A DNA stretch of 51,935 bases, from positions 1 to 51,935 of the forward strand of contig JBBREH010000004.1 of NCBI GenBank assembly GCA_038203095.1, in the 5' to 3' direction. The notes beneath the pieces were generated by a model. The model did no database searches. It was not told the origin of the DNA and saw only the letters and a list, made by a program, of their open reading frames with translations. Positions 8,320 through 14,545 of the stretch are shown piece after piece. Each line of letters begins with the position of its first letter. The first letter of the stretch is position 1. Made by a program: the position numbers and the translations under genes. This stretch comes from Candidatus Doudnabacteria bacterium (GTDB lineage: Bacteria; Patescibacteriota; Doudnabacteria; UBA920).

Positions 8320-11052
8320 CTATTTATTTCTTATGTTGGTTTGATGTTCAGGCGAATTAATTAATCCGCATTTTTTATATTTTTTACCGGATCCGCAGGG
8401 GCAAGGGTCGTTGCGTCCGATGTTTTGCCCCCGTAGGGAACGGTCTAGACCGTTCCCTACGCTACCATCGGAACGGTTTGTTACTAAATTTATCAGCGAC
8501 GGTTGTTCAACAGGCTTTTGATTCACCTGAACCGATATGTGAAAAATGGTAAAGACAATTTGTTTATTAATTTCTTTAACCAAATTTTGAAACATTTGGT
8601 AGCCTTCTCTTTTGTATTCCACCAGCGGGTCGCGCTGGCCGTAACCGCGAAGGCGGACACTGTCACGCAAATGGTCCATAGTGTCCAAGTGCTCCATCCA
8701 TAAATTATCCAACGACTGTAAAGCAACAAACCTTTGCGCGCCCTCAAATACTTCTTTGCCCATTTCCTTTTCTTTGGCCTCCCAAAAATCAACGGCGGTT
8801 TTATAAAGCCTATCAATTATGGCAAATTCTTTATCCCCGGCGCTTCCGGCTTCTTCTTTAATTTGATTGATTAGTTTTTGATCTATTGGAATTATAGCGC
8901 TGGCGGCCGTAAGCAAACTTTCCATATCTTCCTTGGTGTTGCCGTACTCGTCAAGCAAATTCAAATTAAATTTAACCAAGTCAGAAATTTCCTCACGAAC
9001 CATTTCTAAAATCTCGGCTTTTAAGTCTATTAATTTAGCTTCCTCGGTGCCGGCCAAATAACCACGGCGCTTTTTGTAAATAATATTTCGCTGGTGGTTT
9101 AAGACGTCGTCAAATTCTAGCACGTGTTTTCTGGTGTCAAAATTTAAGCCTTCTATTCTCTTTTGAGCGGACTCTATAGATTTGCTGACCATTCTGGCTT
9201 CGATGGGCTGGTCGTCGGTTACTCCTAAAGTAGTCATGAGCGATTTCATCCGCTCGCCACCAAACAGGCGTAAAAGATCATCTTCCATACTTACAAAGAA
9301 CTGGGATGAACCCGGGTCGCCCTGACGTCCGGCGCGCCCTCGAAGCTGGTTGTCTATGCGGCGCGATTCGTGTCGCTCCGTGCCTAAAATGTGCAAACCG
9401 CCGGCTTCACGTACTTTTTTTGCTTCATCTGCGTCTATTGGGTTACCACCAAGTAAAATGTCCACGCCACGACCGGCAATGTTGGTGGCCAACGTTATTT
9501 GACCTAACCGACCGGCCTGAGAAATAATTTGCGCTTCGCGCTCGTGGTTTTTGGCGTTTAAAATTTCAAACTTTAAACCTTCGGATTTAAAATGTTCGGC
9601 AAGCATTTCATTTTTAGCAATGCTCACTGTGCCAATTAAAATTGGCTGGCCTAATTTGTGGCGCTCCTTAACTTCGCGGGTAATTGCTTTGAATTTTTCT
9701 ACTTCAGTTTTATAAACTATATCCGATTTGTCATCCCTAACCATTGGCTTGTTAGTTGGAATTTGCTCTACCGTTAACTGATAGATCTTAAAAAATTCCT
9801 CTTCTTCCGTTTTGGCCGTACCAGTCATACCGGAAAGTTTTTTGTACAATCTAAAAAGATTTTGAAAGGTAATGGTGGCCAAGGTTTTACTTTCCTGCTG
9901 GATTTTAACATTTTCCTTGGCCTCAATAGCCTGGTGCAAACCTTCGCTGTACCTACGACCAAACATTAGCCGGCCTGTAAATTCATCTACAATAATAATT
10001 TCGCCCTCGCGCACAACATAGTCACGGTCTATTTTAAATAAAGTTCTGGCACGCAAAGCCTGCTCAATGTGGTGGATAGTAGTTACACCTTTGGAAGTAT
10101 CGTAAATATTCGGCACTTTTAAAATGCTTTCGATTTTGGTAATGCCGGCGTCACTTAAACTGGCGGCTTTGTGTTTTTCGTCAACAATATAATCGGTATT
10201 GTCTTCAAGCCGATCCACCAGTTTGGCAAACTCATAATATTTACTGGTTGGCTCGCTGTCGGGCATACTAATAATGAGCGGCGTGCGGGCTTCATCAATT
10301 AAAATGCTGTCTACTTCGTCGACAATGGCAAAAAATAATTCGCGCTGAACCAGATTCTGGGCATTCTGCACCATGTTGTCGCGCAAAAAATCAAAACCGT
10401 ATTCATTATTAGTGCCGTAAGTAATATCTGCGGCATAAGCTTCGCGCCTGGTAATTGGCCGCATATGTTTAACATCCATTACCAGCCCTTGGGTTTCGCC
10501 TTCTAAGCGGTCTATTTCTTCCTGCTCGGGTTTGTAATTAGGGTCGTAGAAAAAAGATTGTTCGTGCTGAATGGACGCTACTGATAATCCAAGATAGTGA
10601 TAGACCGGACCCATTAACGAAGCCTGCCACCTTGCCAAATAATCGTTAACCGTAACTAAATGCGCGCCCTTGCCCGCAAGCGCGAAAAGCGCTAACGGCA
10701 AAGTGGCAGTTAAAGTTTTTCCTTCTCCGGTTTTCATTTCCGCAATTTTTCCAACAGCAAGCACAAACCCGCCGGCTACCTGCACATCGTAATGAAATTG
10801 GCCAATGCTTCTTTTAGCCGCCTCCCGCGTTAATGCAAAAACCCTGGGCGCAATTTTCCTTAACTCCTCAAAAATTTCCTTTTCTGTTTCTAATTTCTTA
10901 ATTTCGTCCTTGAATTTCCCAATTTCTTCCCGGATTCTTTCCTGCGATAATTTCTCAATTTCTTGCCCGTATCCATTCACTTCCAAAAGCTCTTTGGCAA
11001 ACCGGTCCAAAGGATTTTTATCTCCGCTAAAAAATTTATCTAAAAAAGACAT
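8320..11052 (-). CDS. secA: Preprotein translocase ATPase SecA
   Basis: MKTGEGKT, DEVDSILIDEART, QLRGRAGRQGDPG, C-terminal GRNDPCPCGSGKKYKKC. Confidence 0.99.
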   Translation of the reverse strand: MSFLDKFFSGDKNPLDRFAKELLEVNGYGQEIEKLSQERIREEIGKFKDEIKKLETEKEIFEELRKIAPRVFALTREAAKRSIGQFHYDVQVAGGFVLAVGKIAEMKTGEGKTLTATLPLALFALAGKGAHLVTVNDYLARWQASLMGPVYHYLGLSVASIQHEQSFFYDPNYKPEQEEIDRLEGETQGLVMDVKHMRPITRREAYAADITYGTNNEYGFDFLRDNMVQNAQNLVQRELFFAIVDEVDSILIDEARTPLIISMPDSEPTSKYYEFAKLVDRLEDNTDYIVDEKHKAASLSDAGITKIESILKVPNIYDTSKGVTTIHHIEQALRARTLFKIDRDYVVREGEIIIVDEFTGRLMFGRRYSEGLHQAIEAKENVKIQQESKTLATITFQNLFRLYKKLSGMTGTAKTEEEEFFKIYQLTVEQIPTNKPMVRDDKSDIVYKTEVEKFKAITREVKERHKLGQPILIGTVSIAKNEMLAEHFKSEGLKFEILNAKNHEREAQIISQAGRLGQITLATNIAGRGVDILLGGNPIDADEAKKVREAGGLHILGTERHESRRIDNQLRGRAGRQGDPGSSQFFVSMEDDLLRLFGGERMKSLMTTLGVTDDQPIEARMVSKSIESAQKRIEGLNFDTRKHVLEFDDVLNHQRNIIYKKRRGYLAGTEEAKLIDLKAEILEMVREEISDLVKFNLNLLDEYGNTKEDMESLLTAASAIIPIDQKLINQIKEEAGSAGDKEFAIIDRLYKTAVDFWEAKEKEMGKEVFEGAQRFVALQSLDNLWMEHLDTMDHLRDSVRLRGYGQRDPLVEYKREGYQMFQNLVKEINKQIVFTIFHISVQVNQKPVEQPSLINLVTNRSDGSVGNGLDRSLRGQNIGRNDPCPCGSGKKYKKCGLINSPEHQTNIRNK
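8433..8460. repeat. GTAG-type REP palindrome within secA
   Basis: Perfect palindrome GTAGGGAACGGTCTAGACCGTTCCCTAC, read as VGNGLDRSL. Confidence 0.88.
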
Positions 11053-11079
11053 AAAGCTACAGAATTACAAATTATAATG

Positions 11080-11196
11080 CACTACAGAAAACTACAGAAT
11101 CTTTATCCAGGCACCTTCCAGGATAACCCGCAGGAAGGTGCTTGGATTTACTATCTTAACTAACATTTCACAAAGGTTCTGTAGTTTTCTGTAGTG
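11080..11196. repeat. Nested inverted repeat upstream of secA
   Basis: 20-bp perfect IR CACTACAGAAAACTACAGAA (11080-11099 / 11177-11196) enclosing TCCAGGCACCTTCC..GGAAGGTGCTTGGA. Confidence 0.8.
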
Positions 11197-11467
11197 TTCG
11201 CTGATTGTTTCCGTAGCTTATTATAACAGACTTCCGCCATAAAAAAAAGCCTTGAATTGAGCTCTGTAAGCATGTGGCGGCGGCCATTGGCCGCCATATT
11301 ATTAGCCATTTATGGGCAAACCCGACAACGCTTGGATTTATTTGCCTCCAAGTTTCGTAGTTTTTTGTAGTGTACCAAATGCTCCCTTATGTAGCACCCT
11401 TTACAACTCTCTCTCTTTGCTAATTTAACTTATCCTCCCGATGAGGATAGAGGATAAAGGAGGTCAA

Positions 11468-11773
11468 ATAACCAACCAGGTGACCAACTAGGAATTTCAA
11501 AGGCTCGCGGCCCAAAAGGCACACGAAATTTGGGAAAAATGGGAGCATGTACTACGGCTAAATTGCTGGAATAAAGCCGTTGCACAACTCCAAAAACAAT
11601 ACATGACGCCGTCCGGAACCTTTTGTGATGCGGCGGTTGCGCCCATTGCTTTTGGGATACATGAGGAGCGCCAAGAGGCGCACGCCCGTCAAGACTGGAA
11701 AGACTCGGAATACGCCGTAGGATGGATGCTCGCGTTTAACAAAACACGAGCTGAAGTGCGAGTTATATTGTAA
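11468..11773 (+). pseudogene. Disrupted ORF with two DUF2934-like repeats
   Basis: SD AAAGGAGGT, then ATA ACC AAC CAG GTG ACC AAC TAG, then an open frame EFQRLAAQKAHEIWEKW...W..A...IAFGIHEERQEAHARQDWKDSE. Confidence 0.5.
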
Positions 11774-12055
11774 GAGATTCTCTGCATATGGACCTGCTTT
11801 GGGTCTTAGAAGCTGAATCAATTCCGAACCATATAACGACCTGGGGCTTCTAATGACCAACAACAAAAACTCATCCCGCATCCGCAGCGCCCCACTTGCG
11901 GATTTTTTTATTAATTGAATCTGGTGCGCTGGCCAAATAATAGTGCTCGACCTTGTGGAGAGCCTATTATTTGACTGATAAAAAGAAAAAAATATCTTCT
12001 CCATAAAGTCGAAGAATATTTTTTTTGAAAACCGCAAAATTTGTAAGTGCCTACA

Positions 12056-12090
12056 AATAAAAACCGGCCCTAGTGTAACATTGGGCCGGT
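12056..12090 (-). terminator. Intrinsic terminator
   Basis: ACCGGCCC-loop-GGGCCGGT followed by TTTTATT on the minus strand. Confidence 0.7.
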
Positions 12091-12125
12091 GCTGAAGTAG
12101 AAATTGCGCCTGCAATCAGCTCAGG

Positions 12126-12164
12126 CTATGTCCAGTCCCCATCAAAACTCCATGCGGTATTCAT
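12126..12164 (-). CDS. 12-aa micro-ORF MNTAWSFDGDWT
   Basis: AAAGGAGG SD 4 nt before the ATG; terminator follows. Confidence 0.4.
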   Translation of the reverse strand: MNTAWSFDGDWT

Positions 12165-12263
12165 GAGGCCTCCTTTTTTTTTGATTGCCATTTAGGCTCT
12201 TTGCAGAGCCAGGAAAATGTTCTCTCTATTGAGACTCAAATTCCTCGCCCTGAATTTCCAGAG

Positions 12264-12458
12264 CTATTCGCTCGCCATAATTGATTCGGCCGCCCTGCCA
12301 CATGAGCAGGAGAGGCTACCATGAACCGCAATTTTGCACTTCGGGCAAAATAAAACATTAAGTTTGCCCTCCTGTAACATCAAGAGCAAAGAATACTGCA
12401 AACTCCCGTGCTTCGGGTTTCCCAAAGCTTCAATTGCTTTTTTTCTTCTATCGGACAT
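12264..12458 (-). CDS. Small hypothetical protein with a CPKC...CSC putative zinc ribbon
   Basis: AGGGAGG SD before MSDRRKK; CxxC and CxC motifs. Confidence 0.65.
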   Translation of the reverse strand: MSDRRKKAIEALGNPKHGSLQYSLLLMLQEGKLNVLFCPKCKIAVHGSLSCSCGRAAESIMASE

Positions 12459-12527
12459 ACTTCCTCCCTGGCGCAACTTGCGCCTTTTTTGATTGTGTTG
12501 AACCTCCCCACAAAATTGTGGGCAAAC

Positions 12528-12554
12528 AAAAAACCGGCCTCGCGTTGAGGTCGG
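12528..12554 (-). terminator. Terminator of the putative aromatic-amino-acid attenuator
   Basis: CCGACCTC-AACGC-GAGGCCGG-TTTTTT; its 5' arm and loop are complementary to upstream GCGTTGAGGCCAGAA. Confidence 0.7.
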
Positions 12555-12591
12555 AAGTTTAGAGTCGAATGCGATCTGTAATATCTGCGGC

Positions 12592-12681
12592 TTAATTTAA
12601 TCTGCGATCTTTCAACTCAAAATTTCTGGCCTCAACGCCCAGTGTAAAATAAAACCAAAAATTTTGTGTTAATTCGCTCAT
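12592..12681 (-). CDS. Putative leader peptide MSELTQNFWFYFTLGVEARNFELKDRRLN
   Basis: Five consecutive aromatic codons; lies between a promoter and a terminator/antiterminator pair. Confidence 0.65.
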   Translation of the reverse strand: MSELTQNFWFYFTLGVEARNFELKDRRLN

Positions 12682-12688
12682 TTCAAGT

Positions 12689-12715
12689 ATTGTAACAGAT
12701 GCGTATAAATTGTCA
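12689..12715 (-). promoter_or_regulatory. Sigma70 promoter of the FWFYF leader
   Basis: TTGACA-16bp-TACAAT with TGn extension, 7 nt before the leader ATG. Confidence 0.7.
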
Positions 12716-12786
12716 AATCGCGATCTGATTTTAGCCTTCTGCGAGTAATACATATCCTTTTCTGTAAAAAAATACTGCCGGCCCCA

Positions 12787-13008
12787 TTAGTGCTTGGGGC
12801 CGGCCTTGAACTTTGCGCGAGTGCAATATTGCAGGTCGCGAAGTTCAATCTGAAAAGCTTGCCCAGGTTCTTCCCCAGGCTGTCTCACTGCGCACTGCAT
12901 TACATTCCCAATATAATACAATTGGAACGTTTTCCCTTTCAAGAATGGAAAACGTTTTGTCATTTGAGGTTTTTTTGTGCGCAGGTACATTTTTACTTTT
13001 ATAATCAT
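12787..13008 (-). CDS. Hypothetical basic protein (73 aa)
   Basis: GGAGG SD before MIIKVKMYLRT. Confidence 0.55.
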   Translation of the reverse strand: MIIKVKMYLRTKKPQMTKRFPFLKGKTFQLYYIGNVMQCAVRQPGEEPGQAFQIELRDLQYCTRAKFKAGPKH

Positions 13009-13141
13009 TGGTCCTCCAACTTTTTTGCAGGCAAACCAGCACCTTTGCTCTGCGATGTAGATTTGTGCTGGCGGCCGGCTAAGTGCATTAGCCAATCGCC
13101 AAAACAAATTTTGCTTGACCTTCTTGGTTCGCCTTTTTCGT

Positions 13142-13172
13142 TAGCGTACTAGTACGTTGAAACGAAAAAGGA
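13142..13172. promoter_or_regulatory. Putative TrpR operator downstream of trpB2
   Basis: TAGCGTACTAGTACGTTGAAACGAAAAAGGA, identical to 15000-15030. Confidence 0.65.
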
Positions 13173-13180
13173 CTAATCTT

Positions 13181-13215
13181 TATTCAGGGGATGTATACCC
13201 TACATCCCCTGAATA
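13181..13215. terminator. 15-bp perfect hairpin after trpB2
   Basis: TATTCAGGGGATGTA-taccc-TACATCCCCTGAATA; no clear U-tract on the minus strand. Confidence 0.5.
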
Positions 13216-13237
13216 TTAATGACAACATAGAACATTT

Positions 13238-14545
13238 TTACTCTTCTGAAACTTTTAAATTTCCGTTGATATAATCCGCGTAGGCCTGCATATCAAAGTG
13301 ACCGTGGCCACTGAGGTTAAAGACTATGGCTTTAGACACACCTTCTTTTTTACATACCAACGCTTCATCAATGGCCGCCTTAATGGCAAAACAAGACTCC
13401 GGCGCCGGTACAATACCCTGGTTTTGGGCAAACATCACTCCGGCCGCAAACGCATCTTTGCTTTCCAATGCCCGAGCCTCAATGATTTTATGTTCATATA
13501 ATGCGCTAACTATGGGCGAAGCGCCGTGGTAGCGCAAACCGCCGGCATGAATCTTAGGAGGCATAAACTGAGCACCCAGGGTTTTCATTTTCATTAGCGG
13601 AGTCATTTGCGCGCTGTCACCAAAATCATATTCATATTTACCCTCAGTTAAGCTGGGACAAACTTTAGGCTCTACTGCTATAGCACGCAGGTCCGGCTTT
13701 TTGCCAGATAGTTTATAGGCCAAAAACGGAAAGGCCAAACCAGCAAAATTACTACCACCACCATGACAACCAATAATTATGTCGGGAAAGTCCCCGACTT
13801 TTTCCAACTGTTTTTTAGTTTCTAAACCAATAATGGTTTGGTGTAAAAGCACATGATTAAGCACGCTACCCAGCGCGTATTTGGTCCCTTCATGGGTAAC
13901 GGCGTCTTCTATTGCCTCGGAAATAGCAATACCTAAACTGCCGGAATTATTAACATCTTCCTCTAAAAGTTTTTTACCAAATTCCGTTAAGGAGCTGGGA
14001 GACGCAACCACCTTACCGTTGAACAACTGCATTAGAATTTTCCGATAAGGTTTTTGTTCAAAGCTAATTTTTACCATATACACCATACACTCAAGCCCAA
14101 AATAGTGGCAGGCAAAACTCAGCGCACTCCCCCACTGCCCGGCGCCAGTTTCTGTAGCCAGTCGTTTTACGCCCTCAGCTTTGTTATAAAAAGCCTGGGC
14201 TAACGCGGTGTTAAGCTTGTGACTGCCCACCGGACTAACACTTTCGTTTTTGTAATAGATTTTGGCCGGCGTGTCCAAAAGCTGCTCCAGCCGCCGGGCG
14301 CGGATAAGGGGCGTGGGTCGGTAGAGCATATAAGCTTTTCTAACTTCATCGGGAATAGCAATATACCTTTCTAAACTGACTTCTTGTTTAATTAATTCCA
14401 TGGGAAAAATTCTGGCCAAATCGGCGGGACCGATTGGCTGCTTGGTTTTGGGGTTTAGTGGCGGGTCTATTCCAAAAGGTAAATCGGCCAAGATGTTGTA
14501 ATAATGAGTGGGAATTTCATTTTCTTCCAATAAGATTTTAGGCAT
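13238..14545 (-). CDS. trpB2: Tryptophan synthase beta chain, type 2 (TrpB2), stand-alone
   Basis: GSHKLNTA (PLP lysine), ETGAGQWG, GGGSN, HAGGLRYHG, NLSGHG; 435 aa; no adjacent trpA. Confidence 0.95.
   Translation of the reverse strand: MPKILLEENEIPTHYYNILADLPFGIDPPLNPKTKQPIGPADLARIFPMELIKQEVSLERYIAIPDEVRKAYMLYRPTPLIRARRLEQLLDTPAKIYYKNESVSPVGSHKLNTALAQAFYNKAEGVKRLATETGAGQWGSALSFACHYFGLECMVYMVKISFEQKPYRKILMQLFNGKVVASPSSLTEFGKKLLEEDVNNSGSLGIAISEAIEDAVTHEGTKYALGSVLNHVLLHQTIIGLETKKQLEKVGDFPDIIIGCHGGGSNFAGLAFPFLAYKLSGKKPDLRAIAVEPKVCPSLTEGKYEYDFGDSAQMTPLMKMKTLGAQFMPPKIHAGGLRYHGASPIVSALYEHKIIEARALESKDAFAAGVMFAQNQGIVPAPESCFAIKAAIDEALVCKKEGVSKAIVFNLSGHGHFDMQAYADYINGNLKVSEE

Follow-up and report, generated by a model that had tools for sequence, protein, structure and literature searches.

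A 51,935-nt stretch of a Candidatus Doudnabacteria contig (the window, to whose whole length all coordinates refer) carries on its minus strand a short leader with a run of aromatic codons, situated upstream of a 64-residue zinc-ribbon-like open reading frame (ORF). This leader is probably a working ribosome-mediated transcription attenuator of the trpL/pheL class, which has been retained in an apparent auxotroph and gates the zinc-ribbon-like gene. Comparison with related genomes suggests that it belongs to a new, well-conserved family of leader-peptide attenuators in a lineage of the Candidate Phyla Radiation (CPR), ancestrally tied to DAHP synthase (DAHPS). The evidence comes from the anatomy of the attenuator, its conservation, its covariation, the behavior of its reading frame, and the genes with which it is associated. 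The window corresponds to contig C4 in an assembly of 1.27 Mb (41% GC, 58 contigs, rated 100% complete), and the host organism is known only from metagenome assemblies, judging from record titles. Among public sequencing runs, the stretch was found in two DNA contig sets of one study, with no RNA run among them.

The leader starts with a sigma-70-type promoter (Table 1). A TTGACA/TACAAT promoter had been proposed in a first-pass annotation of this DNA and is indeed present, although it starts 1 nt beyond the range given there (12528..12715). The ATG of the leader ORF follows only 7 nt past the -10 box. This leaves no space for a Shine-Dalgarno (SD) sequence, so that a leaderless or nearly leaderless RNA would be translated, in agreement with the leaderless ORF of 29 residues described earlier. 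On its own, the sequence provides little statistical support. The region contains 4 promoter-like sites compared with 4.8 expected, which is the chance rate, and the six frames of this genome hold 111 runs of at least five aromatic codons, compared with 23–36 in shuffled sequences. For this reason, the aromatic run was rejected as significant by itself. Judged from this one sequence, the features of the leader could have arisen by chance, and the leader is considered non-random because it is conserved in relatives. The earlier concern that a T-rich run might encode aromatic residues by chance is in keeping with the weak single-sequence statistics, but is countered by the in-frame conservation of the run in relatives.

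The leader RNA can adopt three competing helices. Region 1, which overlaps the aromatic codons, pairs with positions 12634-12612 in the minimum free energy (MFE) structure, with an energy of -20.0 kcal/mol. This 1:2 helix is a classic anti-antiterminator, and it was absent from the earlier description of the locus. Alternatively, region 2 pairs with region 3 to form the antiterminator, which is the centroid structure (-26.9 kcal/mol). The 5' arm of the antiterminator begins 8 nt past the last Phe codon of the run, directly after the aromatic codons as had been noted. The 3' part of region 3 also supplies the 5' arm and loop of an intrinsic terminator, whose stem has one A.C mismatch and an energy of -9.6 kcal/mol and is followed by T6 at positions 12533-12528. 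Because positions 12554-12542 are common to both helices, the terminator and the antiterminator are mutually exclusive, which confirms the exclusivity proposed for the long pairing. The z-score of the leader fold is -2.0, with 9 of 200 shuffled sequences as stable. The terminal loop of the antiterminator contains three to four CACAGAU/GCAGAU-like words in the window (12610-12570) and in the loci L006, L011, L004, L007, and L003. These words are about 8–9 nt apart, with wider spacing in the window and L003, and some short-loop leaders are without them.

A DNA search with a 721-nt query identified the leader in 27 of 61 genomes, including that of the window. The matches in the 26 relatives span the leader part alone (positions 51-253 of the query), and the flanks are unaligned. 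The leader core is 85–88% identical even across genera, and region 2 is the best-conserved stretch. A covariance model (R1) was built on 12 sequences with the antiterminator as its structure. It detects the leader in 39 of 95 genomes of the family (14 of 28 genera). The first-pass annotation had suggested looking for homologous leaders and for the genes downstream of them, and at the level of the order R1 reveals such a family in 48 of 146 genomes, covering 21 of 67 genera and five of six families, with an antiterminator that covaries. The model finds one forward copy in the genome of the window, and neither blastn nor R1 revealed a paralogue there beyond the locus itself and its reverse-strand echo. 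Within the genus, the leader is kept in 16 of 18 genomes and adjoins DAHPS in only one of these.

A strict degenerate pattern, which says nothing on absence elsewhere, was run over 185,579 species genomes and gave 57 loci, of which 35 score with R1. These 35 loci are labeled as Patescibacteria-type (Candidatus Doudnabacteria, Patescibacteria group, or the automatic label "uncultured Candidatus Saccharibacteria") or as unnamed bacteria. The remaining 22 loci are from other phyla (Bacteroidota, Firmicutes, and others); none scored with R1, and they are taken as chance matches. A comparison with Rfam gave no match in the whole window at the gathering threshold and no leader or T-box family in 11000-13300 at E values up to 10, and a tRNA scan of the window gave no tRNA. 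Three weaker matches to the model have non-aromatic leader peptides (MNFRTQNVRVCVIISG..., MKFSTQPVLVCCEIPG..., and MNNLNNSFSVSWYTLPGV). These are L057, a second copy in genome G089; L058, a second copy in G011; and L024:2104-2242 in G016, where the non-aromatic leader precedes a conserved C4 protein (HWNGPQQQL...CCPKCLEE). It seems that one RNA scaffold serves in these leaders with different sets of codons.

The antiterminator shows covariation in two alignments. In a MAFFT alignment of the 12 sequences, its 25 base pairs are 89.4% paired, and compensatory changes are present in 6 of the 25 pairs. With 31 sequences aligned on the model, 89.3% are paired, and 13 of the 25 pairs show changes on both sides (44 cells). 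None of 500 shuffles reached the covariation score in either alignment, and for the 12-sequence set, none of the five measures was reached. Controls in which the antiterminator was slid along the alignment were 26–51% paired. The RNAalifold consensus of the 12 sequences is the 1:2 helix, and the 1:2, 2:3, and 3:4 alternatives fold in all 12 of the first homologues.

For the analysis of the leader ORF, 51 R1 matches were extracted. Leader ORFs of 16–35 codons are present in all leaders examined, and a search by regular expression located a promoter with a -10 box ending 6–11 nt (mode 7) before the start codon in 43 of the 51. At least four aromatic residues within a nine-residue segment are found in 48 matches, and at least five in 45. 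The run itself varies, with FWFYF, FYFYF, FSFYFYF, FWFFFYFF, FWNFFYFYF, and FGFGFYF among its forms. Summed over the nine-residue segments, the codons are TTT (140), TTC (36), TAT (54), TAC (13), and TGG (42), which amounts to 176 codons for Phe, 67 for Tyr, and 42 for Trp. None of the 48 aromatic leaders has fewer than two Phe codons or is without a Tyr codon in its ORF. The earlier proposal of a sensor for all three aromatic amino acids has uneven support: Phe dominates, Tyr comes second, and Trp occurs about once per leader and is missing in several.

The reading frame of the run is strictly kept. The frame test covered 47 leaders, after exclusion of the 3 non-aromatic paralogues and 1 leader with masked bases, and the anchor expression failed to match 3 of them. 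In all of the remaining 44, the last Tyr/Phe-Phe anchor is separated from the start codon by a multiple of 3 (30, 33, 36, 39, 42, or 45 nt), so that the aromatic run, the conservation of which had been in question, is in frame in every leader measured over six different lengths. The anchor is situated 23–29 nt from region 2, and the frame of region 2 departs from that of the majority in 7 of 40 leaders. In five genomes (G082, G085, G065, G088, and G036), region 2 is translated as ...RLRLEILS in place of ...GVE..NFEL. The leader of G012 keeps GFWFYFT in frame, with the conserved CAAAAUUU of region 1 out of frame. The residues TQNFWFYFT are nearly invariant among the leaders. By this comparison, the regulatory codons appear to be under coding constraint and the remainder under RNA constraint, as would be expected for an ORF that acts as a sensor.

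The genes that follow the 48 aromatic leaders are DAHP synthase in 10 cases, small Cys-rich ORFs in 30, and other ORFs in 8. The leader is directly upstream of DAHPS in G031, G002, G088, G036, G054, and G037 as assigned by Pfam, and in G089, G034, G070, and G055 as assigned by position. The enzyme encoded behind the leader belongs to PF00793 and in most cases has a ferredoxin-like regulatory domain. Across the order, 14 of the 146 genomes have a PF00793 gene. Twelve of these genes are high-scoring (one of them cut off by a contig end), and an R1 leader is immediately upstream of 10 of the 12. The DAHPS gene of G044 has a divergent aromatic leader, MNNHPGSFQFFFYFTGPRAGDLLFAY, plus a terminator, and that of G050 has an FFFF-rich region with look-alikes of region 2, region 3, and the terminator, without a clear ATG. 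The lower-scoring PF00793 genes (G008 and G026) are about 1.2 kb from matches to chorismate synthase on the same contig. Beyond these two genomes, chorismate synthase in the order is represented by one weak partial match, in G125. In G037, prephenate dehydratase is located just upstream of the leader, and chorismate mutase follows DAHPS.

Because the leader lies beside DAHPS in 10 genomes, its link to aromatic metabolism can be regarded as firm on the basis of gene order, and the data fit descent of the attenuator from a DAHP synthase attenuator. DHQ synthase was found in only G002 among five leader-DAHPS genomes tested, and DAHPS appears to be an orphan step in the genomes in which it follows the leader. 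The first-pass annotation had offered a choice between new effectors and relics of a lost operon. Each is partly right, as DAHPS follows the leader in a minority of the relatives and gave no match in the genome of the window, and zinc-ribbon ORFs are the most frequent cargo, behind 30 of 48 leaders. The reading of the locus as an attenuator is upheld by the in-frame run, the conservation at the RNA level downstream of it, the covariation, and the presence of the same leader before DAHPS in 10 genomes.

The 64-residue ORF downstream of the leader in the window has the motif CPKC-x9-CSC, and there is no promoter-like site between the leader terminator and this ORF. The 30 leader-adjacent Cys-rich ORFs, the window's own included, have 31–113 residues and CxxC-type motifs. 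Homologues of the window's protein at the same position were found with phmmer at E values of 1.6e-9 (G006) and 1.2e-5 (G032), and it falls into a single-linkage cluster of 13 leader-adjacent zinc-ribbon ORFs, obtained without composition correction, so that Cys motifs raise the scores. From these comparisons, the cargo gene is judged to be real and to have kept its position, and its family appears to be fast-evolving. No Pfam family matched the cargo protein at an E value of 0.01, with PHD_2 alone at 0.036, and a word-based search among proteins of 35–112 residues gave no homologue at an E value of 0.01. An AlphaFold model based on a 6-sequence alignment has a pLDDT of 88.8 and consists of two helices followed by a small beta ribbon. 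In comparisons of this model with solved structures, no convincing match was obtained (best Foldseek E value against the PDB, 2.6; best Z score in a wide VIA-align search, 2.8). An Atlas score of 0.88 to the rubredoxin-like zf-ChsH2 is below the level of trust and serves as a lead alone. From these comparisons, the gene downstream of the attenuator in the window is not recognizable as one that makes or handles aromatic amino acids. A Zn-ribbon-like ORF and a micro-ORF, with no aro or phe genes, had been reported to follow the leader; the ORF stands, but the micro-ORF is part of a second element described below.

In the proposed mechanism, transcription would start at or a few bases from the AUG, and a ribosome would load onto the leaderless 29-codon ORF. 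When the Phe-, Tyr-, and Trp-tRNAs are charged, the ribosome would reach the stop codon and cover region 2, allowing the 3:4 terminator to form and the transcript to end near 12528. When aromatic aminoacyl-tRNA, chiefly that of Phe and Tyr, is scarce, the ribosome would stall in F-W-F-Y-F and hold region 1. Regions 2 and 3 would then pair, no terminator would form, and RNA polymerase would read into the 64-residue gene. A sensor descended from a DAHPS attenuator would thus have been kept without DAHPS and would now gate a small zinc-ribbon-like protein. That the leader is translated, that ribosomes stall on it, which signal it reads, and how termination responds are all predictions from the features described above.

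The model was examined in a simulation in which the bases of 47 leaders were masked to 13 nt past the A-site codon and the remainder was folded at equilibrium. With the ribosome at the stop codon, the terminator hairpin is present in the MFE structure of 47 of 47 leaders; when the middle aromatic codon occupies the A site, this number falls to 13. For the leader of the window, the states free, middle, last, and stop give terminator, antiterminator, antiterminator, and terminator, respectively, which is the textbook expectation. In this model, the equilibrium folds are consistent with the classical scheme.

Several observations weigh against this reading of the locus. When the last aromatic codon occupies the A site, 39 of 47 leaders still have the terminator in the MFE structure, and as free RNA only 21 of 47 have it. 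For the model to hold, the ribosome must therefore stall early in the run, and folding must be co-transcriptional, with the 1:2 helix forming first. The terminator of the window, with its single mismatch, is the weakest among the 12 folded homologues. The 31-sequence alignment was fitted to the model and leans to its structure, and the aligned leaders are related, so the covariation counts represent non-independent events. Translation of a leaderless ORF is an assumption for this lineage. The cargo has no known link to aromatic amino acids. Furthermore, DAHPS (PF00793), chorismate synthase (PF01264), and prephenate dehydratase (PF00800) gave no match in this genome, rated 100% complete, in searches whose control found the families in 11–14 of 14 reference genomes. 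Chorismate synthase likewise gave no match in the leader-DAHPS genomes (for example, G002, G031, G034, G036, and G037).

The retention of the leader after loss of DAHPS would also be explained if the terminated leader RNA of about 160 nt, or the peptide, were the main product and acted in trans, a role compatible with attenuation in cis. The leader is far better conserved than the sequence downstream, with the 26 relatives matching in the leader part alone, the cargo ORFs are diverse, and the residues TQNFWFYFT are nearly invariant. A precedent exists in the attenuator RNA rnTrpL of Sinorhizobium, which is reported to act in trans (PMC6614838). However, the peptide after the run is not conserved and its frames differ, and the Q-N codons are accounted for by the 1:2 helix and are out of frame in G012. 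The zinc-ribbon cargo is found at the same position in 30 of 48 cases, with no intervening promoter-like site in the window, which argues that control in cis has been kept. A main role in trans is therefore considered unlikely.

The strong conservation of T/S-Q-N-F-W-F-Y-F-T, unusual for a leader peptide, together with the non-biosynthetic nature of most cargo genes, could instead point to nascent-peptide arrest of the TnaC or Erm-leader kind, in which the cue would be a small molecule or the ribosome's own state instead of the supply of charged aromatic tRNA. We regard this as quite unlikely. The number and order of the aromatic residues vary freely, so that codon counting fits better than a defined arrest motif; the conservation of the flanking residues coincides with the 1:2 helix; and the link to DAHP synthase fits the sensing of an amino acid. 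It also seems very unlikely that the leader in this genome is a functionless relic left after the loss of DAHPS. The genome does lack a match to any aromatic pathway gene tested, and its terminator is the weakest of the 12 folded, but the promoter, the start codon, the aromatic run, the three helices, and the U-tract are all intact. A relic would also be difficult to reconcile with the presence of the leader in 16 of 18 genomes of the genus, only one of them with DAHPS adjacent, or with a core that is 85–88% identical across genera between flanks that cannot be aligned.

Table 1. Features of the aromatic leader, its cargo gene, and the second conserved element in the window
Feature	Position	Strand	Basis or remark
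Sigma-70-type promoter, TTGACA-16 nt-TACAAT	12689..12716	minus	Score 11/12; extended -10 (TG ending the spacer)
-35 box, TTGACA	12716-12711	minus	Sequence reading
-10 box, TACAAT	12694-12689	minus	Sequence reading
Leader ORF, MSELTQNFWFYFTLGVEARNFELKDRRLN, 29 codons, leaderless or near-leaderless	12681-12595; stop 12594-12592	minus	Sequence reading
Regulatory codons TTT TGG TTT TAT TTT (F-W-F-Y-F)	12660-12646	minus	Sequence reading
Region 1, 5' arm of 1:2 helix (anti-antiterminator), overlapping aromatic codons	12672-12650	minus	MFE, RNAalifold, 1:2 fold
Region 2, GCGTTGAGGCCAGAAATTTTGAGTTGAA, partner of region 1 or antiterminator 5' arm	12638-12611	minus	Folding
Region 3, TTCGACTCTAAACTTCCGACCTCAACGC, antiterminator 3' arm; its 3' part is terminator 5' arm and loop	12569-12542	minus	Folding
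Intrinsic terminator, CCGACCTC-AACGC-GAGGCCGG, then T6 G T3	12524..12554	minus	Folding
Cargo ORF, 64 residues, CPKC...CSCG, zinc-ribbon-like	12264..12458	minus	SD GGGAGG at 12468-12463
Second conserved element, downstream of zinc-ribbon gene	12054..12250	minus	Comparison with relatives
Second-element core, GAGGAATTT-hairpin-CATTTTCCTGGCTC	12246-12206	minus	Strict core pattern
Micro-ORF, MNTAWSFDGDWT, preceded by SD	12164-12126	minus	Second element
Second-element hairpin and terminator, ACCGGCCC...GGGCCGGT-T5	12090-12054	minus	Sequence reading

Downstream of the zinc-ribbon gene is a second conserved element. It consists, in order, of GGGCGAGGAATTT, a covarying hairpin, CATTTTCCTGGCCC-loop-GGGCC, an SD sequence, the micro-ORF, and hairpins with a terminator. 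The micro-ORFs of relatives include MSKVWF, MNEVWF, MDKVWF, MNTVWF, and MGFINDVWFI and often take the form M-x-x-V-W-F-stop. Of 95 family genomes, 8 contain the strict core of the element, each as a single copy that lies a few hundred nucleotides downstream of the aromatic leader, and a reversed control pattern gave one match. The element is also present in G017, G008, G006, G016, G014, G066, G065, G091, G004 (second copy), and G084. From its layout, it looks like a separate riboregulator or attenuator. The UUUUCCU of the element could pair with an upstream AGGAA or with the SD sequence.

A motif search located secA downstream in 11 leader loci, and in all except that of G019, a T-rich hairpin is followed by TGnTATAAT. 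Two of these loci have a first gene that is not a zinc ribbon, namely DAHP synthase in G031 and a 105-residue ORF in G022. As secA is preceded by its own terminator-like hairpin and TGnTATAAT box, recognized by eye, it is unlikely to be part of the leader unit and was rejected as the regulated gene. The window also has over 1 kb of repeat-rich DNA between the leader unit and secA. A palindromic dispersed repeat of about 95–105 nt, resembling a miniature inverted-repeat transposable element, is situated at approximately 11922-12026 and has dozens of copies across the contigs of the genome; further short repeats are found at 11050-11300.

Between the leader promoter and a trpB2-like PALP gene (13238-14545), the minus strand at 12765-13130 is strongly structured (z-score of -6.9, with 0 of 100 shuffles as stable). 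This stretch contains a 73-residue ORF with an SD sequence (12787-13008) and ends with a strong terminator (12804-12777). The ORF was rejected as a conserved partner of the leader, as tblastn with E values up to 1 found nothing in the other leader loci apart from one match at the level of chance.

Three relatives have a tRNA-like gene, its CCA end encoded, between the leader terminator and the zinc-ribbon ORF, at L043:1736-1811 (+), L059:1613-1688 (-), and L053:632-718 (+). ARAGORN describes one of these as a tRNA-Phe with anticodon AAA, one as having an aberrant anticodon loop, and one, with the intron option, as a tRNA-Ala with a 5-nt insert. In the assembly of the window, ARAGORN finds no tRNA-Phe unless introns are allowed. 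It then reports a tRNA-Phe(GAA) at C3:19073-19370, whose anticodon loop is interrupted by 223 nt, as well as a tRNA-Thr with a 614-nt insert on contig C26.

Taken together with its surroundings, the aromatic leader may be a stand-alone sensor of aromatic supply, presumably external, that was kept after the loss of DAHPS in a small-genome lineage in which none of the three enzymes searched for was found. It would switch on fast-evolving zinc-ribbon proteins, then the second, micro-ORF riboregulator and, in some relatives, the tRNA-like genes. On this view, it would be the first starvation regulon based on attenuation to be described in the CPR, and a case of a biosynthetic sensor rewired to non-biosynthetic effectors. 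We put this wider interpretation forward tentatively, as possible rather than probable. If the attenuator itself works as proposed, it offers a direct handle on how these reduced and probably dependent bacteria sense nutrient supply, and it names candidate effectors.

Leader-peptide attenuation normally acts on the operon for synthesis of the amino acid that it senses. In the classical enterobacterial attenuators (trpL, pheL/pheA, and pheM/pheST), a U-tract accompanies the 1:2, 2:3, and 3:4 helices, region 1 contains the regulatory codons, and region 2 is covered once the ribosome arrives at the stop codon. The leader of the window has this four-region logic in common with trpL, pheL, and pheM. 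It differs from them in its apparent lack of a 5' untranslated region, and in having no SD sequence, no match in Rfam, a non-biosynthetic cargo, and a host that is apparently auxotrophic. A literature search, with subscription journals outside its coverage, gave no report of attenuation or leader peptides in Patescibacteria or the CPR, and within the same coverage, nothing relevant was found on Doudnabacteria and aromatic amino acids.

The closest functional parallel is the aroR leader peptide (Phe-Tyr-Phe) of Corynebacterium glutamicum, which attenuates the aroF (DAHPS) operon and responds to limitation of Phe and not of Tyr (Neshat et al. 2014, as described in a review, PMC11802643). On the functional description given there, to which the likeness is confined, both systems place a short leader with adjacent Phe and Tyr codons before a DAHPS gene, and stalling raises transcription in the aroR system, as it would here. 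In contrast to aroR, which is from Actinomycetota, the leaders described here have a longer run (five to eight aromatic codons) that usually includes Trp, and mostly have a cargo other than DAHPS. Mycobacterial leaderless polycysteine short ORFs sense an amino acid and act on translation, according to a preprint (bioRxiv 10.1101/834739). They resemble the present leader in being leaderless and short and in using a run of one kind of codon to make the ribosome the sensor, whereas the leader of the window would switch by an intrinsic terminator versus an antiterminator. In Sinorhizobium meliloti, the released attenuator leader RNA of trpL, rnTrpL, is reported to have a role of its own (PMC6614838), and such a role might explain why a leader is kept when its operon is gone. 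Compared with the known attenuators, the family described here would be new in its lineage, in the absence of a match in Rfam, in its combination of a leaderless start with an intrinsic terminator, and above all in its uncoupling from biosynthesis. In most genomes, the switch appears to have outlived its biosynthetic gene and now stands before genes for small zinc-ribbon-like proteins.

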